In this document: piece after piece, positions 12,068 to 35,946 of the stretch
How positions within the stretch are numbered: the stretch's first letter is position 1
Layout: each line of letters starts with the position of its first letter
IMG/VR virus record: IMGVR_UViG_3300037067_025869
Coordinates: 10,850 to 74,849 of that record
Length of the DNA: 64,000 bases
Reading direction: 5' to 3' (one strand)
Source: a virus
Taxonomy: Duplodnaviria; Caudoviricetes
Notes under the pieces: generated by a model
What the model was told of the DNA's origin: nothing
Database searches by the model: none
What the model saw: only the letters and a program-made list of their open reading frames with translations
Position numbers and translations under genes: made by a program

Positions 12068-12274
12068 TTACTTAACGCCTATTTTTTGCATAAGTTTTTT
12101 TACAATATCCCAAGATATGAGGGTTCCATCTTTTCCTAATAGACCTTCTTTGCCAGCAAAAACCCTTGAAATTCCATCAATTTTGAAACCCTCATAATTA
12201 TGACCACCCATTTGAATAGTTTCATTAACGGGTTCGTCAATAGATTCTTTTACTAGTTTAACGGATTTTTTCAT
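12068..12274 (-). CDS. Small putative virion internal protein
   Basis: MKKSVKLVKESIDEPVNE leader rich in xxE sites; ends with KKLMQKIGVK. Confidence 0.6.
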   Translation of the reverse strand: MKKSVKLVKESIDEPVNETIQMGGHNYEGFKIDGISRVFAGKEGLLGKDGTLISWDIVKKLMQKIGVK

Positions 12275-13041
12275 TTTATAGTCTGTTTCATCGAATTTTG
12301 ATTTTCCTTGGCTTTTTTCTTCTTAAATGGAAGTTTTACCCCCATTTTTTTAGCTATTGCCACCCCCAATTTATCGTATGGCGAAATATTTGTTTCATTA
12401 AGCGATTCTTTAACCAGTTTTACTTTTTTTCTTTTCCTTTTCTTTTTCTGTTTCTGATTACCGCTTCCCCAGATATCTCCGGATCCTTTAACCCCCGATT
12501 GATAAAATTGATTCCCAGTAGTAGCAACTTGCTGAGCTGGTACAGCATTACTCATTCCTGGGACACTTCCCGCCCCGGTCATAGGAGCTCCCGTATCTTC
12601 ATTTATTGGATTTCCTTTTTCGTCATACCCCCAAGCTTTTCTCCGATATTTTTCTTCATATGGCTGAGAATAAATTTCTCTATTTAGAAAATCATCAATA
12701 GCTGATTTATAAGGAGGACTAAAATAATAAGGTCTCCCATTATAATTGATGAAATCTTCTAATGTAGCCCATGGTTTATTTGTATCCGTACTATAATCCC
12801 CTGAATTATCAGCAGTACAACGCATAAGTTTGCTTCTAAGGATATTTTCAATATCAAATGGGGTGTATTTTTCTTTTAAAAGCCATCGAATAATCCTCAT
12901 CCATTCATTATCACTATAGTAAAGACCATAAGAATAAGCCCGATTATCTCCAGATGTAGTTTTTTTAAAAATAACATTAGCAATACCAATACCCATGGTT
13001 TTTTTAGGGTCCTGACCCCGTAAGAATCCTGCTTTAGACAT
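12271..13041 (-). CDS. Modular putative virion internal protein with FxRGxDP leader
   Basis: Starts MSKAGFLRGQDPKKTMGIG; internal INE and VKESLNE junctions separate distinct sequence blocks. Confidence 0.7.
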   Translation of the reverse strand: MSKAGFLRGQDPKKTMGIGIANVIFKKTTSGDNRAYSYGLYYSDNEWMRIIRWLLKEKYTPFDIENILRSKLMRCTADNSGDYSTDTNKPWATLEDFINYNGRPYYFSPPYKSAIDDFLNREIYSQPYEEKYRRKAWGYDEKGNPINEDTGAPMTGAGSVPGMSNAVPAQQVATTGNQFYQSGVKGSGDIWGSGNQKQKKKRKRKKVKLVKESLNETNISPYDKLGVAIAKKMGVKLPFKKKKAKENQNSMKQTIK

Positions 13042-13052
13042 GAGAGCTAATT

Positions 13053-13505
13053 TTATGCTCCTCCAAAGGTTGTATGACCGCTGGTTCCACCGCTAGCAAA
13101 TGCAGTTTTAAGATTTACGGCTTCCATATTTTTCCATGCAACTTGAAGTTTTCCTTGAACATAGGTAGGGCTAGTTCTCCCATAGAATTTTGCAGAAGCT
13201 GCTTTTTCGAGATATTTCTGAAGCATTTCCAATGGAGCTTTTTCCGCCCATACCTTAAGTGTTTTTCTTCCAGCTTCGGGTGAATCAGCAACATAAGTTT
13301 TGAGAGCTACCCCCCAGGCAAATTTTCTAACGGATTTTTCATCATCTTTATTAAGACTCTCATATTCCTTATTTAAACCCTGAAATGCTTTTTTAAGCCC
13401 GGCAACAAAATCATTTACGATTGATTCGGAAACAGCATTCATTTCTTCGTTTAATTTTGCATAAGCACTCTCATTGAGAGATTCTGCTACTAATTGGATT
13501 TTCAT
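13053..13505 (-). CDS. Putative virion internal protein
   Basis: MKIQLVAESLNESAYAKLNEEMNAVSES leader; GAATATATAAA motif at 13521..13531 upstream. Confidence 0.65.
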   Translation of the reverse strand: MKIQLVAESLNESAYAKLNEEMNAVSESIVNDFVAGLKKAFQGLNKEYESLNKDDEKSVRKFAWGVALKTYVADSPEAGRKTLKVWAEKAPLEMLQKYLEKAASAKFYGRTSPTYVQGKLQVAWKNMEAVNLKTAFASGGTSGHTTFGGA

Positions 13506-13566
13506 AATAATTATTTTTATTTTATATATTCATTATTTTACAAAACTCTTAATATAAAGATAATTT

Positions 13567-14544
13567 TTATAGATTAAGAGAATCTATTAAGCGAGTTCTA
13601 ATTTTGCTAATTTTTTGAGCTATTTTAATATTTTCAGGATTATCGTCAAAAAATGTTATATCATCATATTTGTCTGCTAAGCTTTGTAGAATCTTTCTTT
13701 TCTCCTCCGGTATATTAATTTCCCCTTTATCATCACCAATAGTTATAATATGATCCTCAGGAATATCAATTCCATTTCTTCTAAAAAAAGTCCAAATAGG
13801 TATTTTAGCAATAGCTGATCTAGCTGTAAGTATAAAAATTTCTGAAGTGCTTCTTCCCTGTTTAATAGCTGCATCCATATTTTGAAGAGCAGGCCACATT
13901 TTATATGGTTTTGCTTTTAAAATTATTCTGGGGTCCTTAAATTCAGAAACATCTATTTCTTCATCTTCAGCTTTCTGATAAAAATTAAATTCTTCCGGGG
14001 TTAATGATTTTAGGAACTTACCTGCTTTATAAACATGAACTTTTGCATCAGTTTTTACCAAAGTATCATCAAAATCCCAGATATACGCCTTGGTCTTTCT
14101 ATTTACTGTTTTTGCTCTCATTCTATTTTCTTTAAGAGGAAAAGATTTAATTTTTTCTATTTGTTCTTTAATTTTTTCAAGTCTTCGAACAGTTCTCCAT
14201 TCATGATTAGCATCAGCATTTTTAATTGCCCCCTCAAGGTCTGCTCCTCTTTTTTGAATTATATGTATTGCTACCTCGTCATTTTTTTCCCAAGCTAAAA
14301 CTTTCAATATTTCATGCTCCTGAGAATTTATATCAAGGCCTTGCGATAAAAGATAATCCATAAGATCAGATCTTTTTGCTGTAGCACAACTAATGAAATA
14401 TCCTATTTCGTCCATGCTTTCAGTATTTTTCTCTTGAGATTTAGCCAATTGTTTAATTTGACCCATCATTCCTATGCCAATAGCATTTTTTGGATCTATG
14501 TCTCGGCTAAAATTCAATACTTCGCTGATAATTATAGCTCTCAT
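13567..14544 (-). CDS. FxRxxDP-leader protein fused to a HAD-family phosphatase
   Basis: N-terminal MRAIIISEVLNFSRDIDPKNAIGIG plus a short helical (ankyrin-like) region; C-terminal WDFDDTL...ILTARS...FFDDNPEN are intact HAD motifs I, II and IV. In-frame internal ATG at 14121 (MRAKTVN). Confidence 0.8.
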   Translation of the reverse strand: MRAIIISEVLNFSRDIDPKNAIGIGMMGQIKQLAKSQEKNTESMDEIGYFISCATAKRSDLMDYLLSQGLDINSQEHEILKVLAWEKNDEVAIHIIQKRGADLEGAIKNADANHEWRTVRRLEKIKEQIEKIKSFPLKENRMRAKTVNRKTKAYIWDFDDTLVKTDAKVHVYKAGKFLKSLTPEEFNFYQKAEDEEIDVSEFKDPRIILKAKPYKMWPALQNMDAAIKQGRSTSEIFILTARSAIAKIPIWTFFRRNGIDIPEDHIITIGDDKGEINIPEEKRKILQSLADKYDDITFFDDNPENIKIAQKISKIRTRLIDSLNL

Positions 14545-14580
14545 ATTTTATATATTTCAACTCTAAATGCGGGAAAACAA

Positions 14581-14605
14581 AAAACCCTCTAAAAAAGAGG
14601 GTTTT
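14581..14605. terminator. Bidirectional intrinsic terminator
   Basis: AAAACCCTCT-AAAAA-AGAGGGTTTT. Confidence 0.75.
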
Positions 14606-14626
14606 TCTATATTTTAATTTTATAGT

Positions 14627-16069
14627 TTATAGTTTATCAACGATCTTCTGAGCAACTTTATCAGCAATTTTATCTGCTAAAGTATCAGCTGGAGCATCCA
14701 TTACATCTGCCGGGCCTTCTGTAGCCTCTTCAAGATCAAGTGAGAAATCATCGGATTTTTCCCCCGCTTCTTCGCCATCTCCAAGATCAAGGTCAAAATC
14801 CTCTGTTCCTTCTTCGTCTTCTCCCTCCTCGCCTTCGGGTTTTTCTTCATCTTCTACTTCAATTTCACCGCCAAACATTTCTTCAACGTCTACGCCTTTT
14901 TCCTCAAGCCACCCTTTGAGTTTTTCCCAGTAGTCAACAGAAACTTTAATCTTTTCTTCTGTGGTAGGTTCCTCTTCACCTTCGGCTGCTTCTCCTAAAT
15001 CGGGACTTTCTGTATGTTTTTCTTCGTCTTCGTCTTCTTTTTCTTCGCTTTCTGTATTTTCTTCTTTTTCTTTTTCATCTTCAACTTTTTCAGCAGGAAC
15101 TCCAAGTTCATCGAGTTCTTTGACTGCTTCTTCAGCATTAGTTACAGTGATAATGAACTCTGTAATTTCTACCTTTTCGTCTTCAGATTCTTCACCTTCT
15201 GGTTTTTCTTCTTTTTCTTCGCCCTCTTCACCTTTAGATTCTTCTTCTTTTTCTTCTTCACCGCCGAGATCTAAATCATCAAATGAGAGTTCGTCCTCCT
15301 CTTTCTTTTCTTCTTCAGCTTCATTTATCTTTTTACCACCTTTTTCTTCTGGAAATTTGGAAAATTCATTTTCGTCTTTATCCTGTTCTGGCTCTAATTG
15401 ATTATGAAGATTTTTATCAAGTTTACCATCTAATTTATCTTTTCTTTTTTCAGTTCTAGCAATAGGATCTTTTCCCATAATTTCAGCTTTTTCAGTAAGT
15501 TCTTGAGCTCTCTTAGCCTTTATTCTTTCAATGATAGCTTCAATTTTAGCTTTTCTAAATTCGATGATAGATTCTTTACATTCGCATTTTTCTTTTTCCT
15601 TTCCGCATGTTTCGCATTCTTCTTCCCCTTCGGTACCATCATAAATGCCTTTTCTAGGATAACCTTTCTTAGTATCTACAAAATCATAATCATCTTTGAT
15701 CTCTGTTTTCTTTTCCGTAAGAGGGGTGGAGACAAAACGATCAGCTAATCTTTTACCTACTGGTGATAATTTGAAGAATGCTTGCCCTTCTTTAGATTCA
15801 GCTACAAAGAACTGAGAATTTCTTTTTAACCACATAATAGCAGAAGCATTTGGATTTTTACTACATTCATTTAAGTCAGCAATAAATCTTTTTAATTTCC
15901 CCTTAGATACACGCTGATTTTCAGCTACATAAGCGAGAACCTGATTCCTAATTGGAGCATTAACTCCAACTACTACTGGTTTTTTTTCACCATATCCCCT
16001 TTTAAGTGTTATAGATTTTGACTCATTTAAATATTGATCAAGAGTCATTGGAACATAATTCATTTTCAT
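14627..16069 (-). CDS. Highly acidic putative prohead core/scaffold-type protein
   Basis: Glu-rich C-terminal two thirds; many LNE/LTE/INE/LEE sites; GAATATATAAATA motif at 16135..16147 upstream. Confidence 0.55.
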   Translation of the reverse strand: MKMNYVPMTLDQYLNESKSITLKRGYGEKKPVVVGVNAPIRNQVLAYVAENQRVSKGKLKRFIADLNECSKNPNASAIMWLKRNSQFFVAESKEGQAFFKLSPVGKRLADRFVSTPLTEKKTEIKDDYDFVDTKKGYPRKGIYDGTEGEEECETCGKEKEKCECKESIIEFRKAKIEAIIERIKAKRAQELTEKAEIMGKDPIARTEKRKDKLDGKLDKNLHNQLEPEQDKDENEFSKFPEEKGGKKINEAEEEKKEEDELSFDDLDLGGEEEKEEESKGEEGEEKEEKPEGEESEDEKVEITEFIITVTNAEEAVKELDELGVPAEKVEDEKEKEENTESEEKEDEDEEKHTESPDLGEAAEGEEEPTTEEKIKVSVDYWEKLKGWLEEKGVDVEEMFGGEIEVEDEEKPEGEEGEDEEGTEDFDLDLGDGEEAGEKSDDFSLDLEEATEGPADVMDAPADTLADKIADKVAQKIVDKL

Positions 16070-16192
16070 AATTTTAATATTTTATTTTATAATATTTTTT
16101 AATTTAGAATAATCCAACATTAATTCTTTAGATATATTTATATATTCACACTTATTTATAATGATTTGTGACTTTTAATTAACATTAAAGTT

Positions 16193-17005
16193 TTAAAATT
16201 TCCCCTCTTCCCAATCATATTTAGAATCATTCTCTGCTTTATCGTCTAGTAGATCCTTATATTCTTCCATCGATATTTCTTCAACATCATCATATATTTC
16301 ACCAATTTTTTCAATAACATCTACAAATTCCATATCTGGATCAAATTGCATGGTTTCGAGAGGTTCTTCATCCCCTTGAACAACTCTTATCTTCCAAAAT
16401 GAGTCTTCTTTATTTCTATAAACCTTTGCAATAATTTCATCTTCTTCATCGGCATTAATTCTAATTGCAAAAACATAATCAGGATTTAGATCCTCATCTG
16501 TAGCTTGTTGTTCATCTTCGATATCTCTATAATCTAAAAAATCCTCTTCATCTGCACTGTCCTCAAATTCTTCATTCATTTTAAGAAGCCAATTCCGATC
16601 CATTTCATTTAGTTCGTTAAATAAATCCGATATTTTTTCTGATTCCACTGTTGTCGAAGTTCCAGCTGATACTGGCTCTTTATTTTCAGGTTTGGTTGTT
16701 TCCCCTGATTGAACCTGAGCATCTTTTCCCTGCAGTTGAGCTGCTTTGGTTTCAATAGCAATGAGATTTTTGGTGAGAATATTTATTTCATTATCTTTTT
16801 GATTCATTTGTTTCATAAGAAGATCTTTTTGTGTTTGTTTATCAGCTATTTGTTTTTTAACTGCTAAATACTGATTCGATAGGGAAGCTGGAATAACAAC
16901 ATCTTCATTTAGCCCTTCCAATATTTCTTCCCCCAACATTATCATATGATCATTTTCCCAAGCTTCCCCATTCATTTCTTCTATGATTTTATCAAGATTT
17001 ATCAT
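16193..17005 (-). CDS. Acidic coiled-coil hypothetical protein (likely head-associated)
   Basis: LNE sites, coiled-coil segment, acidic C-terminus. Confidence 0.6.
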   Translation of the reverse strand: MINLDKIIEEMNGEAWENDHMIMLGEEILEGLNEDVVIPASLSNQYLAVKKQIADKQTQKDLLMKQMNQKDNEINILTKNLIAIETKAAQLQGKDAQVQSGETTKPENKEPVSAGTSTTVESEKISDLFNELNEMDRNWLLKMNEEFEDSADEEDFLDYRDIEDEQQATDEDLNPDYVFAIRINADEEDEIIAKVYRNKEDSFWKIRVVQGDEEPLETMQFDPDMEFVDVIEKIGEIYDDVEEISMEEYKDLLDDKAENDSKYDWEEGKF

Positions 17006-17023
17006 AATAATTCTTTATTTTAT

Positions 17024-18814
17024 TTATTTTCGAAGTATCTTGCCATTCCAGGTCTTCCATTCACTTTGAAAGGAATCCCATAATCCCCATATACTTTGGG
17101 GGGTTACTGTCTTAAAAGTAACAAAATCCATATCTTCAATAGCTCTAAATGCATGAAATTGATCCTTATTTTCCAATTCCCCAATATTTAGATTCTTTTC
17201 CACAGCAATTCTTTCATCCATAACTTCTTCTTCAAAATAAAGTTGCAAAGATAATTCGCTTTTCTTTGTTGAATCCGTTATAATTACAATAGGTTCATAT
17301 TTAGGCCGGACAGTATCAAAAATACTATATAAATCCCAGTCATTTAATAGAAAGAATGCGGGGACAACATCTTTGTTAGAATTAGCAAATGCTTTCATTT
17401 GAGCCCGGACAAGACCATCCGTAAAGAAAAAATTCTCTCCCCTAACTCTTCTGGAATTGCCTACGGAAACAATAATTACAGGACATTTCCACATATTTTG
17501 AATTGAGCGTATATTATCCTCCTGAGATTTTGTAAATGGTTTGAAATCTGTAATATAAATAGCACATTTTTCTAATCCGGGTTTTCCTTTTTTCCCTTTA
17601 GGCTCAAAAGTTTTCTGGATAGAAGCAATAACTCTCATATTATCAACATCAGAAGCGACCTTTCTAGCTATAGCATCTACAACAATATTATCAGATTTTT
17701 CAGTAATCATTTGGGTATCAGCAAATGGGCTCTCCCGAATAGGGTTAAGAATTTTCTCGCTTATTAGATAAACATAACTATTAAATTTATTAATGGCTGA
17801 TTCATTAAGAAGACCATATTCTTTTTTATACTTTCGAAGAGAGGAAAGTATAACTCTAAATATAGACTCATAAAGTTTTCCCCCGCTTTCAAGAAGTTCA
17901 AGGGTTTTTTTATTTTTGATTAATAATAGATTTAATCCTCCAGCATATCCAAAATTAGGAGGGGTAAGATATTCCGGCTTCATCCCTTCCGTAACAGAAG
18001 GACTTTCACAATAATGATTAAATATATCACACACTATTTCTAGATACATATCATCGGGATTTTTGCCTTCCAATATGGGAAACGGGTATCTTTCTAGAAA
18101 ATTATTAAGGCTTAATATTGTAAGATCATAAAAATCCCTAGAGAATTCAGCTTTTTGATAAGACTCATTCAAAAGTTCAAATTCATAAGAAACAATTTGA
18201 GCTAATCTTTCCCCGTCTGAAATTATAATTCCTTCAATAATATTTTGTTTAGAATAAGTTCCATTGAATCTATTGATTAGAAGTTCGCTTAAATTATCTT
18301 CGATATTATCATAGTCCCCATTAGCATATTCCAATAGAGCTTTCTTTTGTTCCTTGGATAATTTGCCCTTAAATATTACAGGGGGTCTTCCTAGTTGAAG
18401 TATTTCAGCCCACTGTTGTAATTCATTATAATCAAAAGATTCAACAACTTTATTATTTTTTCTACGAGTTATATCTGTAATAAGATATTTTGGCAGTTTA
18501 GTATAGGGAATTCTTATTGGCCTTTCAACCGGTGTATAAGCTAATCCGAAACAAATTCCTTCTGGTATCTTTGCTTCATTCAAAATAATGGAAAGCTCTA
18601 TAATAGCATCCTCCCAAACATTGGTGAGAACTCTTGAAATTAATCCTAACTCTGTATTATCTTTCTTATAGAATTTAATTTCCCCATTTACATTTTCAAA
18701 AAGAATTCTATAAGTATCGAGTTTTTCAGTAATGATTAGTTCTTCATTTAGAAATTCATCAACGTACTTAGATCCATTTTTTTGTAAAATCTTCTGTAAC
18801 GTATTTAATGCCAT
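17024..18814 (-). CDS. Fusion of a ligase-like nucleotidyltransferase fold and a HIGH-type nucleotidyltransferase fold, both with degenerate motifs
   Basis: ITEKLDTYRI (motif I KxDG with G->T) and EGIII (motif IV-like); C-terminal IYITDFKPFTKSQ aligns by eye with GxFxPxHxGH but has lost both His residues. Confidence 0.55.
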   Translation of the reverse strand: MALNTLQKILQKNGSKYVDEFLNEELIITEKLDTYRILFENVNGEIKFYKKDNTELGLISRVLTNVWEDAIIELSIILNEAKIPEGICFGLAYTPVERPIRIPYTKLPKYLITDITRRKNNKVVESFDYNELQQWAEILQLGRPPVIFKGKLSKEQKKALLEYANGDYDNIEDNLSELLINRFNGTYSKQNIIEGIIISDGERLAQIVSYEFELLNESYQKAEFSRDFYDLTILSLNNFLERYPFPILEGKNPDDMYLEIVCDIFNHYCESPSVTEGMKPEYLTPPNFGYAGGLNLLLIKNKKTLELLESGGKLYESIFRVILSSLRKYKKEYGLLNESAINKFNSYVYLISEKILNPIRESPFADTQMITEKSDNIVVDAIARKVASDVDNMRVIASIQKTFEPKGKKGKPGLEKCAIYITDFKPFTKSQEDNIRSIQNMWKCPVIIVSVGNSRRVRGENFFFTDGLVRAQMKAFANSNKDVVPAFFLLNDWDLYSIFDTVRPKYEPIVIITDSTKKSELSLQLYFEEEVMDERIAVEKNLNIGELENKDQFHAFRAIEDMDFVTFKTVTPQSIWGLWDSFQSEWKTWNGKILRK

Positions 18815-18850
18815 AATTTAAATTTATTTGTTATAATTTATATATTAAAA

Positions 18851-18873
18851 AAAGGGATGCTCTGCGTCCCTTT
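18851..18873. terminator. Intrinsic terminator
   Basis: AAAGGGATGC-TCT-GCGTCCCTTT flanked by A/T runs. Confidence 0.65.
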
Positions 18874-18879
18874 ATATCT

Positions 18880-19002
18880 TTAACCCCCACAGCATTTACG
18901 TTTTCTGGGTAGAATAAACCTGAAATTTTTTAAGAGAGGTTTTTGTCTTTCCGGCGGTTTTGGCCCTGGTTTTTTATGAAGTTTTGGCCCCAGTATTTTC
19001 AT
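18880..19002 (-). CDS. 40-aa basic Pro/Lys-rich peptide
   Basis: Below the track cut-off. ATG overlaps the upstream TAA (TAATG): MKILGPKLHKKPGPKPPERQKPLLKNFRFILPRKRKCCGG. Confidence 0.55.
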   Translation of the reverse strand: MKILGPKLHKKPGPKPPERQKPLLKNFRFILPRKRKCCGG

Positions 19003-19511
19003 TACTTGCTTTCTTTAAGTTCACAATTAATTTCATGCAATAATTCTTTAATGTTTTTAACAAAAGATTCTTTAAATGTTTCGAAAATAACTTCAGAAGG
19101 GAGAACACCAGATAAATCCGAAGCTTTTACTTCGTTATATATTTCATCTACCACATTGTATAATTTATATTTTAACTCACTTTGACGAAGGGTTTCACTA
19201 ATAACAATGTTGGCTTTTTCTTTCAAAAAATTCTTTTTTTGATCTGCAGAAGAATGCTCATTAAGAGCACGTCCTCTCGTATTTAAAAACTTAATTCCCA
19301 TTTCACTTATGCCTTCAGATTCGGACCAGTAGGAATTAAGTTCCAATAAAAATATATTCTGAGCTTTTTCAGAAAGCTGTTTAAATTCTGGTATTCCATA
19401 CTTTTCTAAGAGAGTATTATAAACCTTTGTAAACTGCCCAAGAACCTTACTTTCAACAAGATTATCTTCTTTAGTTTGCTTCTCCTTCAGTATAGTATTG
19501 AATTTTCTCAT
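19002..19511 (-). CDS. Putative virion internal protein
   Basis: MRKFNTILKE...LVES leader; doubled AATATATAA motif upstream. Confidence 0.65.
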   Translation of the reverse strand: MRKFNTILKEKQTKEDNLVESKVLGQFTKVYNTLLEKYGIPEFKQLSEKAQNIFLLELNSYWSESEGISEMGIKFLNTRGRALNEHSSADQKKNFLKEKANIVISETLRQSELKYKLYNVVDEIYNEVKASDLSGVLPSEVIFETFKESFVKNIKELLHEINCELKESK

Positions 19512-19661
19512 AACAAGAGGATTTTATTTTATATATTATATATTTGTTCATTTTTTTATAAATTGCGATTTTTTTGCTTTAAATGAAAATATATGACTAT
19601 TTTTAAATTTCGGCATAATATTCTCATATATTATAGTAAAAACCCAAATAATATTTTAACT

Positions 19662-20642
19662 ATGAAAAAACTAATATCAATTTTAATAGGGTTTCTCTTT
19701 TCTTATATATCTTTCTCTCAGATTGAGAGATCAACCCCCACCCAGCAGAGGTCTAATTATGAAATATATGTTATAAATAAGGATAAAGGTATTTCCCAAA
19801 ATACTATAGATCCGCAAAAAAAGGAATGGGATGATCTATATTATATTCCTTCAAGAGATGAATTAAAACGTAAAGCAAAGAATATTAACCTTCGAAAAAA
19901 AGGGATAAGAATAGAACATGATTCTTTATATTACGATGCAAAAAAAGAAGTTTATGAGGATCTTTCTTTTACAGCACAGATTTATAGATTTCATCGTCCT
20001 TATTATGGATTTGGTTATTATAATTATTATTGGGATCCATTTTGCAATCTGACGTTCTTAAAGTCATGGTATTATGGGTATTATCCTTATTGGGGATTTA
20101 GATTTGATTATAATAATTGGTATAGCTGGGGGTATACATATGATTCATATTATCCAAATTGCTATTTTGGTAGAAATACTTATTACAGCCATTACTATAA
20201 TTCCAAGATCCAATACGGAAGGCGAGAAAAGCCTTCAAATTTATCTTCTTCTTTTAATACAAATATTAAAAGACAACCTTCTAAAATTGATAGAACCCCG
20301 ATCAGACCCTCTGCAATCCAAGAAAATAGAAGGGTTAATAATTTGCAAAAAATAAATTCATCTAATGAAAGAAGAGTAACTACAAATCGATCTAACTATA
20401 ATCCGGCGAGAAATAATCAAATACGAAGTTATACTCCAAATTACTCACAGCCTCACTCTCGTTCTCAGTATAACAATACGAATATAAATAGAAGTTATTC
20501 ACCCGTAGAACATAGAAGTTATTCTACCCCTTCTGGGAATTATAACTCCGGGTCTTCTTATTCTGGGGGATCGAGCGGATCTAGATCAGGAGGGGCTTCA
20601 GGCAGATCAGGTTCTTCCAGAACTACATCACGAAGGAATTAG
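19662..20642 (+). CDS. Bacteroidota-like secreted Tyr-rich protein with disordered Arg/Ser/Asn-rich tail
   Basis: Likely start is ATG 19662 (MKKLISILIGFLFSYISFSQ signal peptide) within track ORF 19593..20642; WDDLYY, QIYRFHRPYYG, Tyr/Trp-rich block, YGRR, then a low-complexity tail. Isolated plus-strand gene. Confidence 0.75.
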   Translation: MKKLISILIGFLFSYISFSQIERSTPTQQRSNYEIYVINKDKGISQNTIDPQKKEWDDLYYIPSRDELKRKAKNINLRKKGIRIEHDSLYYDAKKEVYEDLSFTAQIYRFHRPYYGFGYYNYYWDPFCNLTFLKSWYYGYYPYWGFRFDYNNWYSWGYTYDSYYPNCYFGRNTYYSHYYNSKIQYGRREKPSNLSSSFNTNIKRQPSKIDRTPIRPSAIQENRRVNNLQKINSSNERRVTTNRSNYNPARNNQIRSYTPNYSQPHSRSQYNNTNINRSYSPVEHRSYSTPSGNYNSGSSYSGGSSGSRSGGASGRSGSSRTTSRRN

Positions 20643-20670
20643 CAGAAAGGAGCTTAAAAAACTACTTTTT

Positions 20671-27966: not shown

Positions 27967-28072
27967 TAATATCTCGTTAAAAATTCTTTCATATATAAGA
28001 TTTCCCGTATTGAAGATTTTAAAATAACCTCTTTCATACATTATTTGATTCCCAGATTTATTCTTATCCTCT

Positions 28073-28351: not shown

Positions 28352-28412
28352 TTTAGATAGTAAGACAATTTAGCTTTTTAGATATCTTTAATATATTCTA
28401 TATATCTACGAA

Positions 28413-28441
28413 AAAAGGTAAAGTTTTTGACTTTACCTTTT
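28413..28441. terminator. Bidirectional intrinsic terminator
   Basis: AAAAGGTAAAG-TTTTTGA-CTTTACCTTTT. Confidence 0.75.
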
Positions 28442-28466
28442 TATTTTATTAATATTTTATTAAAAA

Positions 28467-28805
28467 TTACATTGATAAATATTCCTCCATTTTTCTTTTT
28501 GCTTGCCCCAGTTTAGGAAAAGTATTCTGAGCTCCCCTTTCCCCTTCTTTACTCCAAGCTGCAATATAATATTCTAAACCCGAATCTACCCATGCTAAGT
28601 GATATCCTGTTGCATCTAATGATATAGATACCACTACTATTTCAAGGTCAGGATCTTTTTCTGTTTTATCATCAGTTATTCGAGGATTTAGATTTGGGTT
28701 AATTTCTTTAAAAGCTGCTATAAGTTTTTGTGCTTCTCTAGCATGTTTATTCCCAATATTCATCGAATCTTTAGGATCTACCCCCCTTACAAACTGCGCT
28801 CTCAT
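28467..28805 (-). CDS. FxRGxDP-leader protein
   Basis: MRAQFVRGVDPKDSMNIG followed by an unrelated small domain. Confidence 0.75.
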   Translation of the reverse strand: MRAQFVRGVDPKDSMNIGNKHAREAQKLIAAFKEINPNLNPRITDDKTEKDPDLEIVVVSISLDATGYHLAWVDSGLEYYIAAWSKEGERGAQNTFPKLGQAKRKMEEYLSM

Positions 28806-29119
28806 TATAATAAAAGAAGTTCTATTTTTTTAACGAAAGATTGTTTATTTCCAGCGCCAATTTTAGTATCAAATACTTCTCCTTTTTTTATAAAAAAAAC
28901 AGAAGGTATACTTTTTATTTTGTATTTTTCGCATAATTCAGGATTTTCATCTACATTACATCTAACTATTTTTACTTCATTTCTATATTCTTTTGATAAA
29001 TCCTCTAAAATGGGGGAAATAATTCTGCAAGGGCCGCACCAGTCAGCTTCGAATTTAATGATTAAGTTTGGAGCATTTTTTATGATTTCATCGTAATTTT
29101 TATTGGTTAATTCTTCCAT
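28805..29119 (-). CDS. trxA: Thioredoxin
   Basis: FEADWCGPCR active site, NVDENP, IKSIP. Confidence 0.95.
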   Translation of the reverse strand: MEELTNKNYDEIIKNAPNLIIKFEADWCGPCRIISPILEDLSKEYRNEVKIVRCNVDENPELCEKYKIKSIPSVFFIKKGEVFDTKIGAGNKQSFVKKIELLLL

Positions 29120-29210
29120 ATTTCTTCATTTTTATTTTATATTCCAAATAATTTTCCCTCTTTATTAATTTATCTGCATTTTGAACCCCTTATTTTCCCC
29201 CATTGAGCGA

Positions 29211-29447
29211 TCATTTCATTTGCATTCCATATCCGTATTTAGAAGATTCGGGTGTCCAAGTAGCCTTAACCCCGGTTTCTAGGGAGCTAAGAGCTTTATA
29301 AACTCTTGACCTTCCCCCATACTCTTTGACTATTCTGTCAAAAATTGATTTAAGCTGAGCTTTAGCTTGATCAAGTTGTCTTTCGTGAAATCTTCCGAGT
29401 TCCATAGAATCCATTGGATCTACTCCTCTTACAAAGCGAGCATTCAT
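29211..29447 (-). CDS. FxRGxDP-leader protein
   Basis: MNARFVRGVDPMDSMELG followed by a short helical domain. Confidence 0.7.
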   Translation of the reverse strand: MNARFVRGVDPMDSMELGRFHERQLDQAKAQLKSIFDRIVKEYGGRSRVYKALSSLETGVKATWTPESSKYGYGMQMK

Positions 29448-30625
29448 TCTTTGTCTCTTCCAAAGCGGAAGAAGCTGATTATTTTAAGTAGAGGAAGATA
29501 ACTTCCAGTAAGTTTAAATAATTTTCCTTCATAATTGAAAACAACCCCCTCTATTGGTGCTATCGAGTCGAATCCCCCCGCTCTAAGAAATCTTTCATAT
29601 TGAGCTTTTAGAAACTTGGATTTTTCTCCACGGTATTCACTCATCTTATTTATCGCATCATCAGTTTTATCTATTATGGATTTTTGGGCTTTTGAAGGGT
29701 CGGAAGAAGCTATATTCTCCGAATTTAATAGTACTTTTGATCCAACTCTAGAAAATATTTCAATTATTTGTTCCAAAAATACTGTTCGGATACTATCTAT
29801 ATTTTTATCTGTTTCTTTTACCCATTTAACGGTTTGCTGATTTTTTCCAGCTAAAAGTTTAGTAATAGATGTTGATTTATCCAGATATGCCCATCTTCGA
29901 ATAAGACTTTTTATTAGGTTAAAATCCCTTTCCCTAATTTTTGAAAATTCGAAATCGATAAAATCCCAGAATTCAATTGCTAAAAAATCTTCAATAGTAT
30001 TTCTTTCTGCCAGATTAAAATTTTCCATCAGGGAATCCAGATCTTTTAAAAATTCTGTAGGATCCATAAATTTAAGTGAAACCTTATTAGTCTTATCGAT
30101 TTCAAAAGTTTTTGAAATTCCCTCTTGAGCAACTTTTATTAGTTTCAATAATGGGTCAAAATTAATATCTATAACCCCATTTTCAGTTTGCACATTATGA
30201 ATTCGGAGTTGATTTTTATTATATGGAATAATATTTTCCATTAAAGGTGTCAACAATTCCATATTCAGCCAATATTTTCCATTTAGAAAGAAATTTTGAA
30301 GAATTTCTTCATCTATAGTAAATAAAACGTTTTGTAAATCCTTTGCGGCGGTTGAATAAGCTTCTCGGGATTCTAGAGTTTTCATATATTCTCCCACCAG
30401 ATCCCAGCGCATCGCTTCAGCACCGTTATCCCGGACTTGTTTTAGGGAACGAGCAATATAGACATGACCGCTCTTATAAGTTGCTAGAATATTTACCCCA
30501 TCCAATTTTTCTTTTGCATTCTCTAAAGTACCTAAACACGATTTAATGATAATCTCTCTAATCTGTCCAAATGTTAAATCCATATTCTCCCATGGAGATT
30601 GGATATGTCCTGCTGCACCGCTCAT
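29444..30625 (-). CDS. Ligase-like nucleotidyltransferase-fold protein (T4-like DUF6267-type)
   Basis: Probable start is ATG 30625 (MSGAAGHIQSPW) within track ORF ending 30661; AKEKLDGVNI (KxDG), WLNMEL, PIEGVVFNYEGKLFKLTG (motifs IV/V). Confidence 0.65.
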   Translation of the reverse strand: MSGAAGHIQSPWENMDLTFGQIREIIIKSCLGTLENAKEKLDGVNILATYKSGHVYIARSLKQVRDNGAEAMRWDLVGEYMKTLESREAYSTAAKDLQNVLFTIDEEILQNFFLNGKYWLNMELLTPLMENIIPYNKNQLRIHNVQTENGVIDINFDPLLKLIKVAQEGISKTFEIDKTNKVSLKFMDPTEFLKDLDSLMENFNLAERNTIEDFLAIEFWDFIDFEFSKIRERDFNLIKSLIRRWAYLDKSTSITKLLAGKNQQTVKWVKETDKNIDSIRTVFLEQIIEIFSRVGSKVLLNSENIASSDPSKAQKSIIDKTDDAINKMSEYRGEKSKFLKAQYERFLRAGGFDSIAPIEGVVFNYEGKLFKLTGSYLPLLKIISFFRFGRDKE

Positions 30626-30706
30626 ATATTTTTTCCGATTAATTTTTCCATTATTTTTCAATGATATATTGACAAATTTGGATTGTCGCCGCCATTATGG
30701 TTCCTG

Positions 30707-31027
30707 CTAAATAAGCCGCAGCGATCTAAACCAATTTAAAATCCTATTTTTTTTAGTCTGAGGATAAAACCAGCTTCCTGTAATTAAAAACACAATTGGC
30801 AATCCGATGAGCATTAGCAACATTAAAATAATTGCAAAGGGTAGTGTAAATCTCAGCCATGTTTTTACAGGGGTTTCATTTTCGGTATAAAAATCAATAC
30901 CTAATAAAATCCATCTATCACACATTTCTTCGCTTGAAACTTTCTTAAGCTCTGGAAATGTTTCTTTGAATTTTGGTATGTAGTTCATATCATTATGAGA
31001 CCATACTCGTTTTAATTTCCTGTACAT
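30707..31027 (-). CDS. Hypothetical membrane protein
   Basis: One long hydrophobic segment LPFAIILMLLMLIGLPIVFLITG. Confidence 0.65.
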   Translation of the reverse strand: MYRKLKRVWSHNDMNYIPKFKETFPELKKVSSEEMCDRWILLGIDFYTENETPVKTWLRFTLPFAIILMLLMLIGLPIVFLITGSWFYPQTKKNRILNWFRSLRLI

Positions 31028-31077
31028 TTTTATCTAATTTTAGGTTAACAATTTAATTAAAAAACACGAAACCAAAG

Positions 31078-31917
31078 TTATTTTTTACGTGTCCAAGTTT
31101 TCTTTGTCTCATTCCATTCCCAATCTTTGAGAGGTTCTTCATCCTCGTCTTCATCTTCTTCCTCCGTAATAGGAAATTGGGATTTATAATTATATCCTGC
31201 TTGATAGCGATCATATCCTAATGGGGAACTTTCTGATGGGGTTCCAGATGTATGTAAAGCTTCGGTAACTTGATCCGCAGCAACGTCAGATTCTGGTAAA
31301 CTAATATTTTGTTCCAGAGTATCCCAAACGAATGAAACTTGTTCTTCTGTTGAGTCAGGGTATCCTGTCATAAAATTTTCTAAATCGCCATTAATTAAAT
31401 CTTGTCTTAGAACACTTGCAGAGATAGGTTCGCCTTCATGTTCATCTGTTCTACCTTTGAATCTTAAAGGCTCAATATTGACAGGCAATTCAACTATATT
31501 GATTCCCCTTCTATAAAATTTGCCTTCTAAAGAATGTTTCCAAGCAAAATCTGAAATTCTTTTAGCATTTTCTTCTTCCTTGCTGGAAGCTGCTAAAGTA
31601 TATTGACCCGGATCTGCTTCTTGAACAATCTTATAAGCTGCTAATATTGGAGAAGCCCAAGGAACTGCTTCGATTGTTGCTTTTTTAATATTTTCAGTTA
31701 GTTTTTCAATCATTTTTACAGCTATATTTTGGGTGATTCCCCCTCGAACACCTGGCCCAACAAGAATTCTGATTTCTTCAACTTCAGGAAGTTCGGCATA
31801 TTTTTTAATAAGGTCAATATGCCCGCCGCTACACGGTTTAAAACTCCCCGGAAATAAAACTATTACGTTTTTAACTTCTGATTTTTTATTCATAAATTTG
31901 AATTTTTTATATCGCAT
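31078..31917 (-). CDS. HIGH-family (cytidylyltransferase-like) nucleotidyltransferase
   Basis: VLFPGSFKPCSGGHIDL and ISASVLRQ (SxS-x-R) motifs; acidic tail. Confidence 0.7.
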   Translation of the reverse strand: MRYKKFKFMNKKSEVKNVIVLFPGSFKPCSGGHIDLIKKYAELPEVEEIRILVGPGVRGGITQNIAVKMIEKLTENIKKATIEAVPWASPILAAYKIVQEADPGQYTLAASSKEEENAKRISDFAWKHSLEGKFYRRGINIVELPVNIEPLRFKGRTDEHEGEPISASVLRQDLINGDLENFMTGYPDSTEEQVSFVWDTLEQNISLPESDVAADQVTEALHTSGTPSESSPLGYDRYQAGYNYKSQFPITEEEDEDEDEEPLKDWEWNETKKTWTRKK

Positions 31918-32759
31918 TTTTTTAAAACTTCATTTGGTAGGGGAAGATTTTGCTCCTCTATGCACTCGATAAATCTATTAATGATATCTGCTCGTTTATT
32001 TATCCATTTAAAATTAGGGGACATAACTATATGCCATAGCTTTTCAAATGTATCAATATCTGATGGAATAAACTGGCTTCCCACAGTCAGATCTAAAATT
32101 TCCATAGGTTGATCTGTAACAAAATATTCGGATCCATTGACATTCGTTCCACCCTTAACCAATTTTCCTTTCTTCCCCATAAAATTTTTGCGAACCCTCC
32201 AAACCCCCCACGGAAATTTAAGTATGTTTACTTCGATTTCTTCTATTCCCCCTATATCAGTAAACTTAATTATTTCTTTTTTTGATTCTGTAATAATAGC
32301 CATTAAAAGAATATTTCGATAAAATCCTTTGTATTCAGATTCCCCTTTGCGAAAATCCGGAGAATGATAAATGAATTCTGACCACTCGAGATTGTGTGTT
32401 ATCATAAAATCCACTTGAACAATCCCCATTTCATGATTCCCTGCAATAGGACAGCCGAAGGAAACAATTCTAAATCCATAATTAATAGCTGAATCAAATC
32501 CCAGTGTTTCTAATTGATGCTGCAGCATATTTAATTCAGTATTTTTAGGAAAAGAATTGGGGTCTGGTTTAAGAAGAACGGCAATATCAATATCCCCATA
32601 AATTTCCCCGTCTTTTTTCTTTCCATAAGAACCCAATAATTCAATATCCTGTTCTCTGATTAGTAAATGCCGAAGAACATTTTCTTTTAGCCATTTAACT
32701 GTTTCTTGAGCTTCGTCAAAAGTAACCGGACGAGAAGTTTTAATTGCATTCCCTCCCAT
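31890..32759 (-). CDS. Pol-beta-superfamily nucleotidyltransferase
   Basis: Probable start MGGNAIK (ATG 32759) within track ORF ending 32786; LLGSYGKK...GDIDIAV...VQVDFM match the GS/DxD/D catalytic signature. Confidence 0.75.
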   Translation of the reverse strand: MGGNAIKTSRPVTFDEAQETVKWLKENVLRHLLIREQDIELLGSYGKKKDGEIYGDIDIAVLLKPDPNSFPKNTELNMLQHQLETLGFDSAINYGFRIVSFGCPIAGNHEMGIVQVDFMITHNLEWSEFIYHSPDFRKGESEYKGFYRNILLMAIITESKKEIIKFTDIGGIEEIEVNILKFPWGVWRVRKNFMGKKGKLVKGGTNVNGSEYFVTDQPMEILDLTVGSQFIPSDIDTFEKLWHIVMSPNFKWINKRADIINRFIECIEEQNLPLPNEVLKKCDIKNSNL

Positions 32760-32806
32760 GATAATATTTTTTACAAATATACACAAAAATGGGATAAGTT
32801 TTATTC

Positions 32807-33088
32807 TTATCCCGTTATGATTTCGTTAAACCCCCATTCTTGAAAGCTTTCGAATGCTTGTTTTTGGGTGGGTTGTAAATCCCTTTGGAGAATACTGATT
32901 AATTTCATGGAAGGCTTTCGAACTAATTCCCCTTGCGTCTGATATATCTTAGGATCTACTTTACCTAAATATTTCCAACGCATAAGTTGATTAGGAGTAA
33001 TGTGAACTTGATAAAGATCCTCTCCTTTTAAAACAGTATGGGAATAAATGTAATTTCCCCTATTTTTGTATATTTGGAGGTAAGGCAT
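32807..33088 (-). CDS. Hypothetical protein
   Basis: 93-aa ORF overlapping the upstream gene end. Confidence 0.55.
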   Translation of the reverse strand: MPYLQIYKNRGNYIYSHTVLKGEDLYQVHITPNQLMRWKYLGKVDPKIYQTQGELVRKPSMKLISILQRDLQPTQKQAFESFQEWGFNEIITG

Positions 33089-33689
33089 CTTCTTTTGGAG
33101 CTTCTTTTTTAACTAGATTAACTACCTTTCGAGAGGTTTTGTCTGGATCTTTATCTTTATTGGGATGCCAGGAATAAACCCCTTTCGTAAATGTAATCTG
33201 GAAAGGCTCCCGAAGCTCCCTTTTATATTTTCCCCCCTTACCTGATAAAACATAGGCAAGAGTGAGATGAGGATGAAATTCAGGGAAAGTCTGGGTATTT
33301 GGAATTTGCATAAAAAGATCCCGATATTTTTGTAATTGACCGGTTAGAGGAACATTATATTTTACAACATCATATTCTTTTCCGGGAAAAACATCAACTT
33401 CCTTGATTGTAACGGTTACCGGTTTCATATAGTATTCAATTAGATCGGCCATCCTCTGAGGATCAACTTCTTTTTCGTGGATGCCATAAAGAATTGTTAC
33501 GTGGGGTTGTTCTTCCAACCCATAGGAATCATCATAAGGTTTTAAATAAATATCTTCCCTTTCAATTCCTGCTGTATGAAATTCTGTCCAATTTTTTATA
33601 TCGGCATCCATCATAACACAGCCAAATTTTTCATCATTAGCTGAAGTGTCGGATTCATTTAACCATTGCAAAAAACTTTGAAATTTCAT
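33060..33689 (-). CDS. 2H phosphoesterase (Acb1/LigT-like)
   Basis: Two HxT motifs: PHVTILYG and PHLTLAY. N-terminus MKFQSFLQWLNES resembles a T4-type capsid-targeting leader. Confidence 0.8.
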   Translation of the reverse strand: MKFQSFLQWLNESDTSANDEKFGCVMMDADIKNWTEFHTAGIEREDIYLKPYDDSYGLEEQPHVTILYGIHEKEVDPQRMADLIEYYMKPVTVTIKEVDVFPGKEYDVVKYNVPLTGQLQKYRDLFMQIPNTQTFPEFHPHLTLAYVLSGKGGKYKRELREPFQITFTKGVYSWHPNKDKDPDKTSRKVVNLVKKEAPKEDALPPNIQK

Positions 33690-33718
33690 CTTTTAAATAT
33701 TTTTAATTTTATTTTAAA

Positions 33719-34498
33719 TTATATGGTTTTTAACATCCCGATTAAAGATGGATCCGGGTGGCAATCAGATTTATCCTTACGATATGATACATGAGTCCAT
33801 ACTCCAGGCATACCAGATAGAGCATCCTGGGAAAGATCCCACATTTTCTCATGATACATGAGAGTAATATTATATTTCTGTTTCCAAAATAATAAAAGTT
33901 CCCCTATAGTTTGTATCTGTTCATTTGTATATTTTTCATAGTAGTTATATCCGCGAAATCCGCTTGGATAATATTGCATTGCAACATCAACGGCATTACC
34001 ATAGTAGGTATAAAATTTTCCTACTTCAGTATGAATATTTTTAGAGGGATTTCCAAATTTTTTAATGGTTCCATCACCAGGAATTAATCCCCCCCAGTTA
34101 TCAATCTCAATACCAATTGATTGAGAATCTCTAAGTTTGTTTCCTATTCCTAAATGCCAAGCCCAGTATTTTGAAGAGAATAACTGATGCGGAATTCCAT
34201 TTCGATCGATAATCATAGCGGTTCCTACAACTGTTGGATCGTCTTCCCAAGTTGCAATATCTCCGGTAACACCATTGCCACTTATTGTATGATGCAAGCA
34301 AATTTGTTTTTTCAGACACTCCTCATGAAAATATTGATCTTCTGGAAAATCAATAACTTTGATTTTGTGAAGTTCAATGGGTTTTAAATCTGACCGCATA
34401 TTAGAAATTATTTTAGTTGCAGAAGCATCTTCTTCTGGCGTATGCTCATAAAACTTCCAATCTTTGATCCAAGACCAATAAAAAGGAAATGATAGCAT
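33719..34498 (-). CDS. N-acetylmuramoyl-L-alanine amidase (endolysin)
   Basis: ICLHHT, AWHLG, SIGIEIDNWG, YTNEQ, THVSYRKDKSDCHP Zn-amidase motifs. Confidence 0.88.
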   Translation of the reverse strand: MLSFPFYWSWIKDWKFYEHTPEEDASATKIISNMRSDLKPIELHKIKVIDFPEDQYFHEECLKKQICLHHTISGNGVTGDIATWEDDPTVVGTAMIIDRNGIPHQLFSSKYWAWHLGIGNKLRDSQSIGIEIDNWGGLIPGDGTIKKFGNPSKNIHTEVGKFYTYYGNAVDVAMQYYPSGFRGYNYYEKYTNEQIQTIGELLLFWKQKYNITLMYHEKMWDLSQDALSGMPGVWTHVSYRKDKSDCHPDPSLIGMLKTI

Positions 34499-34508
34499 AA
34501 GTTTTATT

Positions 34509-35003
34509 TTATTTATCCATCATTTCATTTCTTATTAATCTATTGCACTTACTTTTCCAATTAGCCCCAATTGAATTAATTGCTTTAGTTTTAGTATATT
34601 TGAGTATACATCTATTCTCAATCCAATCATTATCAAGATGCCATAAAAAATCATTCCAGAATTTAAAAAATGGCCATTTATCATCCATATCTGTAAAGTG
34701 AATCCTTTCTTTGGGAATTCTTAGTCGTTCAGCTATTTCAAAAAGATCTTTATTTGTTAAGCCAACAGCAGCTGTATTTTGGAAAAAAGATTTATATCTT
34801 TCATCATCTCCAAATCGAGAGGTTACAATCCACACTTCAATTCCCTCATCAACAAGTTCTTGAGCATATTTTTGAACTGATTCCCTCGATAGGGTTTCAT
34901 CGAAACCAAAGCTTACACGGATTGTTTTTTCCTTTTCCATGTTTTTAGAAAAAATTAAGAAGCTTAGGCCTGTTTTTAATATGTCTAAGCTCCTTAGATC
35001 CAA
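34509..35003 (-). CDS. HAD-like protein lacking the catalytic Asp
   Basis: VSFGFDETL (DxD motif with first D->G), IVTSR, HLDND. Confidence 0.65.
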   Translation of the reverse strand: MDLRSLDILKTGLSFLIFSKNMEKEKTIRVSFGFDETLSRESVQKYAQELVDEGIEVWIVTSRFGDDERYKSFFQNTAAVGLTNKDLFEIAERLRIPKERIHFTDMDDKWPFFKFWNDFLWHLDNDWIENRCILKYTKTKAINSIGANWKSKCNRLIRNEMMDK

Positions 35004-35008
35004 AAAAA

Positions 35009-35335
35009 TTAATAGGGTTTAATATGGGGGAGAAGTTTTTCCCCTCTAGGAGTAACTGCCCAACCAGATTCTGTTTTTTCTACTATTCCGACTTTTGAAA
35101 ATAAAGCTAAAGATATTGCTGCTACTTCTTTAGCATCGTGAATAGCATTTTTTATTTCTGATTCTGTTAAAACAGGAGTTCCCCCTGTTTCGAGTTTCTT
35201 TACTACACGAGCCTTCATAGACGCATAAATTGATTCTCTTTTCATAAAAGGAACGGTTATTTCCTTATCATATTCCCCCTTATCAATTTTATCCTTCATT
35301 TTATTTAGAAAGACATGTGATGATTCTGCATTCAT
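35009..35335 (-). CDS. Hypothetical protein, possible winged-helix C-terminus
   Basis: SLALFSKVGIVEKTESGWAVTPRGEKLL resembles a wHTH wing. Confidence 0.55.
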   Translation of the reverse strand: MNAESSHVFLNKMKDKIDKGEYDKEITVPFMKRESIYASMKARVVKKLETGGTPVLTESEIKNAIHDAKEVAAISLALFSKVGIVEKTESGWAVTPRGEKLLPHIKPY

Positions 35336-35571
35336 AATTTATCAGGTTTTTCGTATTTATTTCTTATTATACCCGAAAAAGCTACGATAATTTTCTATTA
35401 ACGAAGATTTAACACTAAAATTATAGCTCAAAAAAGAATTTAACTAATTTTTAACGAAAAAATAAAAACTATCATTAGAGAAGTCATACAATAAGTGTCC
35501 AAGAGAAAAAGAAAGAATTTACTCTAATAGAAAGAAAAGAAAAAAGAAAGATAAATAAATAAAAATATATT

Positions 35572-35946
35572 ATGAATCTAATCCCCGAATCTTTAGAAGA
35601 ATCTCTAAATTTTGAAAGAGGGCAAGATCCCAAGAAAAGTATAAGGATCGGTTTAAAATATCCAAGAAGATTTGAGACTATTGACGAATTTGTTGATTAT
35701 ATCATATCTGCTATGCCCTTAATTTTTAATGGTGAAATCCCTGATGATATTTTAAACTCCGAAGAACATTTATGGCTTCCCATAGCATATTTCCAAAAAA
35801 TAGCTACTTGGTTGAAGAAAGAAAAATTTGAAATGCCCAATGGAAATACTAATTGGGACTATACATTTGGCATGTCCGATGAATTCGCGCATTGGCCTAA
35901 ATCAATTGCTTTAAGATTAGAACAAATGCTTGATCAGAAGAGGTGA
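35572..35946 (+). CDS. FxRGxDP-leader protein, isolated on the plus strand
   Basis: MNLIPESLEESLNFERGQDPKKSIRIG; GATAAATAAATAAAAA at 35550..35565 upstream. Confidence 0.8.
   Translation: MNLIPESLEESLNFERGQDPKKSIRIGLKYPRRFETIDEFVDYIISAMPLIFNGEIPDDILNSEEHLWLPIAYFQKIATWLKKEKFEMPNGNTNWDYTFGMSDEFAHWPKSIALRLEQMLDQKR

Follow-up and report, generated by a model that had tools for sequence, protein, structure and literature searches.

A short tag at the start of unrelated protein modules in uncultured T4-like phages: a candidate docking signal for capsid cargo

Five open reading frames (ORFs) in a 64-kb stretch (the window) of the 74.8-kb IMG/VR contig IMGVR_UViG_3300037067_025869, which belongs to an uncultured myovirus that has a tail sheath and a T4-like set of replication genes, begin with the same short peptide and thereafter have unrelated sequences. 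In other metagenomic phages this peptide, referred to here as the tag, stands both near the start of single genes and repeatedly within polyproteins, where it follows a hydrophobic-x-Glu site. We give an even chance to the reading that it is a retained docking tag for capsid cargo, situated behind a head-protease cut and combined with the chaining of modules into polyproteins. The basis of this reading is circumstantial: it comprises the modularity of the tagged proteins, the disorder of the tag in structural models, its virus-only spread, the site rule at its junctions, the head genes of a tag-rich contig (G002) and a copy of the capsid protein N-arm in one of the tagged proteins.

In the five ORFs, the motif F-x-R-[G/D]-x-D-P-x5-[I/L]-G lies 5–14 residues from Met1. 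The translations bear out the original prediction, made from the window sequence, both for these five and for a variant that occurs twice in a sixth ORF. The features are as follows (window coordinates):

12271-13041, minus strand: P0001, 256 residues, isoelectric point (pI) 9.8; leader MSKAG (five residues before the Phe), then the tag FLRGQDPKKTMGIG
12985-13026, minus strand: the tag of P0001, FLRGQDPKKTMGIG; profile match with E 3.4e-8, independent of the training set
13567-14544, minus strand: P0002, 325 residues; 11-residue leader MRAIIISEVLN with I-S-E|V; tag FSRDIDPKNAIGIG at nucleotides 14470-14511, a profile match
28467-28805, minus strand: P0003, 112 residues; leader MRAQ (four residues before the Phe); tag FVRGVDPKDSMNIG at nucleotides 28752-28793
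29211-29447, minus strand: P0004, 78 residues; leader MNAR (four residues before the Phe); tag FVRGVDPMDSMELG at nucleotides 29394-29435
35572-35946, plus strand: P0005, 124 residues; 13-residue leader MNLIPESLEESLN with L-E-E|S; tag FERGQDPKKSIRIG at nucleotides 35611-35652, then a helical domain
2458-3258, minus strand: P0006, 266 residues in two units, with the degenerate half-tags ESINFQRGLSS... and EAMEFKRSSSE...

A profile built mostly from the tags of other phages recovers all five tags (E-values 1.7e-14 to 6.7e-7) and the first half-tag of P0006 in the contig; two of the five window tags were in its training set, and the remaining matches, including those to P0003 (E 1.3e-8) and P0004 (E 6.7e-7), are independent of it. 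In P0006, the D-P...I-G half is missing from both variants, the profile covers only positions 2–16 of the first (E 4.6e-5), and each unit continues from the first tag half into a common S-S-(R/E)-E-I-K-(D/E)-(R/K)-L stretch; these half-tags may be decayed, or may represent an alternative class of tag. Scanned in six frames for [FYW]x[RK]xxDP, the window gives eight matches; five of these are in the tagged ORFs, always where a long ORF begins. Among real ORFs, F-x-R-x-x-D-P is confined to these five, and the further 10.8 kb of the contig outside the window adds no match to the broader pattern.

Taken together with the residues that precede it, the extended consensus is [L/V/I/M]-x-E-[S/A/N]-[V/L/I/Q]-[N/D]-F-E-R-G-x-D-P-K-x-[S/A]-M-x-I-G; the tag itself spans ∼18 residues, six of which (F, R, G, D, P and G) are near-invariant. 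A degenerate DNA pattern for it matches 88 IMG/VR stretches, many of them two to six times. Applied to 596 Gb of genome sequence from bacteria and archaea, the pattern gives seven single matches, which is about the chance level at ∼36 bits. Searched against 1.84 billion cluster representatives, a protein profile of 38 columns (alignment A2) matches 1947 at E ≤ 1e-3 and 558 at E ≤ 1e-10; the matches that were looked up are all metagenomic, and their clusters are called ‘hypothetical protein’ throughout. There are 6 tags on the window contig (75 kb), and 20, 36, 25 and 19 on others of 137, 133 (G002), 78 and 66 kb, respectively, the tag-bearing contigs of 66–137 kb, which come from anaerobic digesters, activated sludge and sediments, being estimated to be 16–34% complete. 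The tag is thus a large, virus-only family that has no curated name.

The window contig is itself an estimated 18% complete, which implies a genome of about 400 kb, and its replication set comprises ribonucleotide reductase, a family B DNA polymerase, UvsW and gp32. The last of these is 35–38% identical to gp32 of Lak and other huge phages, and the tag was not found in four such genomes (Lak-A1, Lak-B5, LR756500 and LR756504). Similarly, tblastn searches with P0005 and two other tagged proteins (P0013 and P0173) against 50,697 deposited phage genomes returned ankyrin similarity only, and scanning the six window proteins against Pfam and PHROG gave no match over the tag. A match of phrog_2423 to one polyprotein (24 bits) was dismissed as noise: it is absent from the window contig, and the same family also hits 9 of the 14 genomes of bacteria and archaea used as controls. 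A literature search for the motif found no description of it, the hits to ‘FERG’ being hallmark residues of nanobodies. The motif therefore appears to be as novel as the original prediction supposed, and the tag system to be undescribed as far as literature and database searches went.

The tag is frequently internal. The IMG/VR loci contain 40 ORFs with two to nine tags each, and the maximum among database proteins is 12, within 1511 residues; the spacing from tag to tag has a median of 119 residues (5–95% range 93–253). Among the 505 distinct tags, 206 sit inside long ORFs. The original prediction had expected a motif restricted to N-termini and had counted copies elsewhere against itself; as worded, that expectation fails, although its companion, that a profile search would uncover diverse C-terminal domains, is borne out. 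The residues ahead of the tag follow a strict rule. Glu occupies position −4 relative to the tag Phe in 201 of the 206 internal tags, and is accompanied by a hydrophobic residue at −6 in 180 of them. For N-terminal tags with leaders of 8–30 residues, the corresponding counts are 149/171 and 149/171, whereas for those with leaders of one to seven residues (typically M-N or M-R-A-Q) both the Glu and the full site are found in 0/109. There are, therefore, two classes of leader, such that the tag lies either a few residues from Met1 or behind hydrophobic-x-Glu; both are represented in the window, where the x-x-E sites noted earlier ahead of two of the motifs were confirmed as I-S-E|V (13567-14544) and L-E-E|S (35572-35946). 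Cleavage at the site would make the internal tags N-terminal too, and would place the tag of every module 2–4 residues from a free N-terminus. Indeed, the same units are found in both contexts: the P0005 unit family stands alone in the window and occurs in one to four copies inside the polyproteins of relatives, and the P0004 tail family is also an internal polyprotein unit, for example in a 1167-residue ORF (L074). Autoproteolysis by asparagine at N|F was considered and rejected, as no more than 57% of internal tags have Asn at −1.

Prohead proteases of T4 and of giant phages cleave after Glu behind a short motif (PMC9026906, PMC5694885). G002 encodes both a protease of this kind and a capsid protein, the former being an 844-residue protein in which a Peptidase_S77 (T4 gp21-type) domain is fused to a scaffold-like tail of ∼650 residues:

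L175 (G002:C1:55000-70000), 5769-8303 (60768-63302 of G002): protease-scaffold ORF, with the gene for a Gp23-family capsid protein directly after it

The protease-scaffold contains nine [LIVM]-N-E motifs against 1.15 expected, a number reached in 0/2000 shuffles, and 36 [LIVM]-x-E motifs against 19.4 expected. In the capsid protein, one such site lies in the first residues, M-K-Q-L-N-E|A, and a second, H-A-L-N-E|A-E-M-G-G, ahead of the N-arm and of the region that aligns with mature T4 gp23. Since the site is enriched in the protease-scaffold and present in the capsid protein, the tag junction is a plausible head-protease site; most plausibly, to judge from these sequences, it is the kind of site that the head protease of this group uses.

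Perhaps the most telling connection to the head is made by P0001, which consists of a five-residue leader, the tag, a helical domain (residues ∼20–148), I-N-E, a mimic of the capsid N-arm, a poly-Lys stretch, S-L-N-E and a C-terminal peptide, a layout that is repeated in 28 homologues:

12469-12588, minus strand: copy of the capsid N-arm, residues 152–191 of P0001, with I-N-E ahead of it at nucleotides 12598-12606
12394-12405, minus strand: S-L-N-E site, between the basic stretch and the C-terminal peptide module
12271-12393, minus strand: C-terminal peptide module, with a consensus that starts E-N-I-N-P-Y-D-K-L-G and a Lys-rich end; also present in P0191-P0194

In a BLASTP alignment, residues 152–191 are identical to residues 51–90 of the G002 capsid protein at 26 of 40 positions (65%, E 1e-12), and these capsid residues form the N-arm just after the L-N-E|A site. 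Moreover, the P0001 family consensus, I-N-E-D-M-G-G-V-S-A-P-M-A-T-L..., copies the capsid junction too. The N-arm copy may serve as an anchor in the shell, or may compete with the N-arm of the capsid protein itself. Some of the homologues (P0173 and P0184) end at or two residues after S-L-N-E, and the C-terminal peptide module is found on at least two unrelated N-terminal parts (for example, in P0191). No other finding here speaks as strongly for a head component among the tagged proteins as the N-arm copy does.

The scheme that we infer, in all five of its steps, would begin with the synthesis of diverse small modules (with a median spacing of 119 residues), each from a gene of its own or chained, up to 12 at a time, in polyproteins; the full form of the tag is [L/I/V/M]-x-E | [S/A/N]-[I/L/V]-[N/D]-F-E-R-G-x-D-P-K-x-[A/S]-M-x-I-G. 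The flexible tag would then bind a component of the assembling prohead, either its protease-scaffold core or the inside of its gp23-like shell; a prohead protease of the T4 gp21 type would cut after the Glu four residues before the tag Phe; the modules would thereby be freed inside the head, each with its tag 2–4 residues from the new N-terminus; and they would finally leave with the DNA at infection, as the internal proteins of T4 do. Leaders of two to five residues would provide the same N-terminal geometry with no need of a cut. The broader proposition, on which we would bet at slightly less than evens, is that of a clade of giant T4-like phages (∼400 kb) with a generic loading system, in which the tag docks the modules, the head protease cuts chains of up to 12 of them, and dozens to more than 100 effectors per genome, drawn from at least 250 unrelated families, are delivered with the DNA.

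Several observations weigh against the reading of the tag as a signal for capsid cargo. Neither the Peptidase_S77 protease gene nor the Gp23-family capsid gene is on the 74.8-kb window contig (∼18% of the genome), and neither is on G001, whose tail sheath is 70% identical to that of the window and which is the sole contig with shown kinship to the window phage; the link from the window to head genes thus rests on G002, which is grouped with the window phage by the shared tag. Within G002, the tags lie at 24–32, 47, 75–80 and 99–128 kb and the head genes at 60–65 kb, and tagged genes are dispersed among replication genes rather than beside the head module. The late-promoter signal is not enriched upstream of tagged genes (124 tagged against 599 untagged ORFs from related DNA). 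The units are slightly more acidic than other ORFs, with a median pI of 5.8 and 52% below pI 6. Additionally, [LIVM]-x-E carries little information, and its conservation could reflect part of a longer binding motif. Finally, the targeting peptide of T4 is removed, whereas this tag would be retained: every invariant residue is downstream of the putative cut, and the mature protein would keep them, so that the analogy with T4 drawn by the original prediction does not extend to a removable leader.

Some of these points would be accommodated by a cytoplasmic polyprotein system, in which cutting at the junction takes place in the infected cell through a protease of the phage or the host, perhaps not the prohead protease, the tag is a prime-side recognition element or a regulatory handle, and the modules act unpackaged as host-takeover or anti-defence effectors. 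The tagged genes do stand among replication genes of early or middle type, with no enrichment of late promoters; the units are not basic; and the Ank, LRR, GNAT, 2H and phosphatase domains found among them are typical of effector or anti-defence proteins. Nevertheless, we think this unlikely: the junction is of the site type that is enriched in the protease-scaffold and present at the N-terminus of the capsid protein, P0001 bears its copy of the capsid N-arm, and a second dedicated protease was not seen, albeit in the absence of a systematic search for one.

Structural models bear on how the tag might be read. In AlphaFold models based on family alignments, residues 30–124 of P0005 have predicted local distance difference test (pLDDT) scores of 85–92 and residues 1–25 fall below about 50; likewise, residues 20–148 of P0001 score 87–95, with the tag and residues 149–217 below 50. 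In both models, the tag scores below about 50–58 and forms at most a one-turn helix at D-P-K, although the two domains belong to different tail clusters; neither domain gave a usable match with ESM Atlas and Foldseek against the PDB. The best-conserved segment is therefore disordered in the models, which suggests a linear motif that is read by a partner rather than part of a fold. The same property would suit uncleaved beads on a string, in which the tag is a short linear motif for one host or phage hub, the polyproteins serve as multivalent scaffolds, and the binding motif takes in the Glu and hydrophobic residues. A tag that is disordered, and yet far more conserved than its surroundings, does resemble a docking motif, and the invariant F, R, G, D, P and G hold more information than a protease site needs. 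However, the bimodal leaders (up to seven residues with no site, eight or more with one) are better explained by a need for the tag to be near an N-terminus, the same unit families occur both as separate genes and as fused units, and some natural C-termini fall at or two residues after S-L-N-E; we accordingly hold this alternative to be improbable. Other roles for a conserved N-terminal peptide were rejected: Sec, Tat and type IX secretion signals on composition and position, and an N-degron exposing the Phe because no protease logic fits and because it would make little sense for so many genes.

The proteins behind the tag are diverse, as the original prediction had proposed for its cargo. 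When 791 distinct tails were compared, they fell into 254 BLAST clusters, the five window tails into five separate ones (that of P0003 belonging to a small cluster of three members), and hhalign comparison of the 24 largest tail families gave a probability above 50% for only 3 of 276 pairs (an LRR–LRR pair and two others). In relatives, the domains that Pfam identifies behind the tag include Ank, LRR, GNAT and 2H phosphoesterase, and most ORFs give no match. The payload of P0002 is a HAD-type or polynucleotide-kinase-like phosphatase domain, with a match to phrog_415 (polynucleotide kinase, E 9.6e-12) and one to Pfam Hydrolase that falls short of the curated cut-off (E 2e-4). The exchange of modules is well illustrated by P0008, whose leader and tag are nearly identical to those of P0005 and are followed by unrelated sequence. 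The homologous C-terminal regions that would have marked these proteins as simple paralogues were thus not found. An ordinary paralogue family, with one fold, a conserved N-terminal element and a fast-evolving remainder, would be in keeping with the tandem units of similar size (about 120 residues), which recall paralogue expansion; it has, in our estimation, very little chance of being correct, given 254 tail clusters almost devoid of profile-level links, clearly distinct known folds behind the tag, and models in which the tag packs into neither of two different domains.

It remains to consider whether selection acts on the peptide or on the underlying DNA. The 100 nucleotides upstream of the five starts cannot be aligned, and the Arg and Gly codons inside the tag vary between the window copies, indicating selection on the peptide and not on the DNA. 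The late-promoter box TATAAATA is not enriched in the window (22 observed, 16 expected), it is absent from the 100 nucleotides upstream of each of the five tagged starts, and in the related DNA it precedes 1.6% of tagged and 5.2% of untagged genes. The late-type promoters that some of the tagged genes had been thought to own are therefore not confirmed, and the portable cassette of promoter and leader was rejected on the same evidence; what persists of the proposed capsid-addressing system is its protein part, which gains circumstantial support from the protease-type site, the S77 and Gp23 genes on G002 and the N-arm copy in P0001. More generally, a DNA- or RNA-level element (a mobile cassette of promoter and leader, a recombination hotspot or a translation enhancer, with peptide conservation only apparent) might be suggested by the position of the motif at gene starts within the window, but it is contradicted by the data and has next to no chance of being right, as synonymous codons vary within the tag, the upstream DNA cannot be aligned and has no notable common k-mer, and 206 copies of the tag are internal to long ORFs. 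Between the ORF at 14627-16069 and the tagged gene at 13567-14544, the minus strand carries a hairpin (14545-14626; CCCTCT-TTTTTA-AGAGGG, followed by TTTTTT) that is likely to be an intrinsic terminator, and for this reason that tagged gene may own a start signal.

The retained-tag system is most likely a variant of the logic seen in T4's internal proteins, and the module size of about 13 kDa is within the range of the latter. In T4 (IPI-III and Alt), as here, a short N-terminal signal is borne by unrelated, fast-evolving small proteins (PMC9026906, PMC3012670, PMC5694885). The signal of IPIII, its capsid targeting sequence, is a propeptide made up of the first 10 residues, with processing determined by residues 8 and 10 (PMC9026906), and the core and scaffold proteins of T4 are cut to small fragments by gp21 (PMC5694885). 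A hydrophobic-x-Glu site of the prohead-protease type adjoins the signal in both systems (in two of the five window ORFs too), and within the tag-bearing group G002, though not the window contig, encodes a T4-type S77 protease and a gp23-like capsid protein. The differences are that the leaders upstream of the putative cut are here 1–30 residues long or absent, that the modules are often chained (up to 12 per polyprotein), that payload families number in the hundreds and tags in the tens for each partial genome, compared with a handful in T4, and that the payloads are not basic.

The ejection and inner-body proteins of phiKZ, 201phi2-1 and SPN3US, which are processed by proteases of the gp175/gp245 type, offer a second parallel: these giant phages package many proteins, cleavage is after Glu behind a short motif with multiple cuts per precursor (PMC5694885), and SPN3US has paralogues with identical N-terminal peptides, gp53 and gp54 (PMC5694885). 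Their propeptides, however, are long (at least 100 residues) and are removed; a universal retained tag and beads-on-a-string polyproteins of unrelated modules are not reported in the work cited (PMC5694885), and the head genes found here are T4-like, not phiKZ-like. The targeting peptides of Family 1 encapsulins (SDGSLGIGSLKRS) are similar in that a short disordered peptide docks diverse cargo inside a shell of the HK97 fold, and the S-M-x-I-G end of the tag recalls their core, S-[L/M]-G-I-G, over five residues and at the level of sequence only (PMC8346489). They are usually C-terminal, whereas the tag is N-terminal or at unit starts; they have no counterpart of the F-E-R-G-x-D-P half and involve no protease; and the pocket that receives them uses an N-terminal helix not known in T4-like capsid proteins. 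As the C-terminal position is absent and only S-[M/L]-x-I-G overlaps SDGSLGIGSLKRS, the tag does not qualify as an encapsulin targeting peptide. Lastly, the polyproteins of picornavirus-like viruses and the Gag-Pol of retroviruses likewise consist of unrelated modules separated by a repeated short junction, with a virus-encoded protease available; the junction described here differs in having a long conserved prime-side tag, and its modules are encoded by single genes with mini-leaders as well. We know of no described case of junction-cut module polyproteins in tailed phages.

If the capsid-cargo reading is right, roughly a tenth of the coding capacity in tag-rich regions would be given over to proteins that are loaded in advance and diversify rapidly (36 units in the 133 kb of G002, for example), the interpretation of hundreds of huge-phage genes that presently have no known role would change, and virion cargo could be predicted by a sequence rule straight from metagenomes. 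It would also be, to our knowledge, the first polyprotein strategy described for tailed phages, amounting to a swappable, polyprotein-based virion payload with no described phage counterpart, and would supply a short, natural and retained tag to try for the packaging of foreign proteins. Were the capsid reading wrong, a virus-only linear motif with ∼1950 protein clusters and a strict junction rule would still denote an undescribed processing or docking system.

Some neighbours of the tagged genes also deserve comment. The ORFs at 14627-16069, 13053-13505 and 3260-3955 have leaders of the M-K...L-N-E|S or F-L-S-E|V type. Those at 14627-16069, 16193-17005 and 3260-3955 (all on the minus strand) encode very acidic proteins, with pI values of 4.1–4.4 and net charges of −14 to −18 per 100 residues, and all three adjoin tagged genes; two TATAAATA boxes lie upstream of 14627-16069 and one upstream of 3260-3955. 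Elsewhere in the window, the ORFs at 47480-49048 and 50372-51877 match homing or HNH endonuclease PHROGs. The family B DNA polymerase ORF (8294-9742, minus strand) encodes the exonuclease part and only the start of the polymerase part, and is followed by a 550-residue ORF with a match to DUF7487 (region 6706-9742, minus strand); the juxtaposition of the two suggests a split or interrupted polymerase gene.

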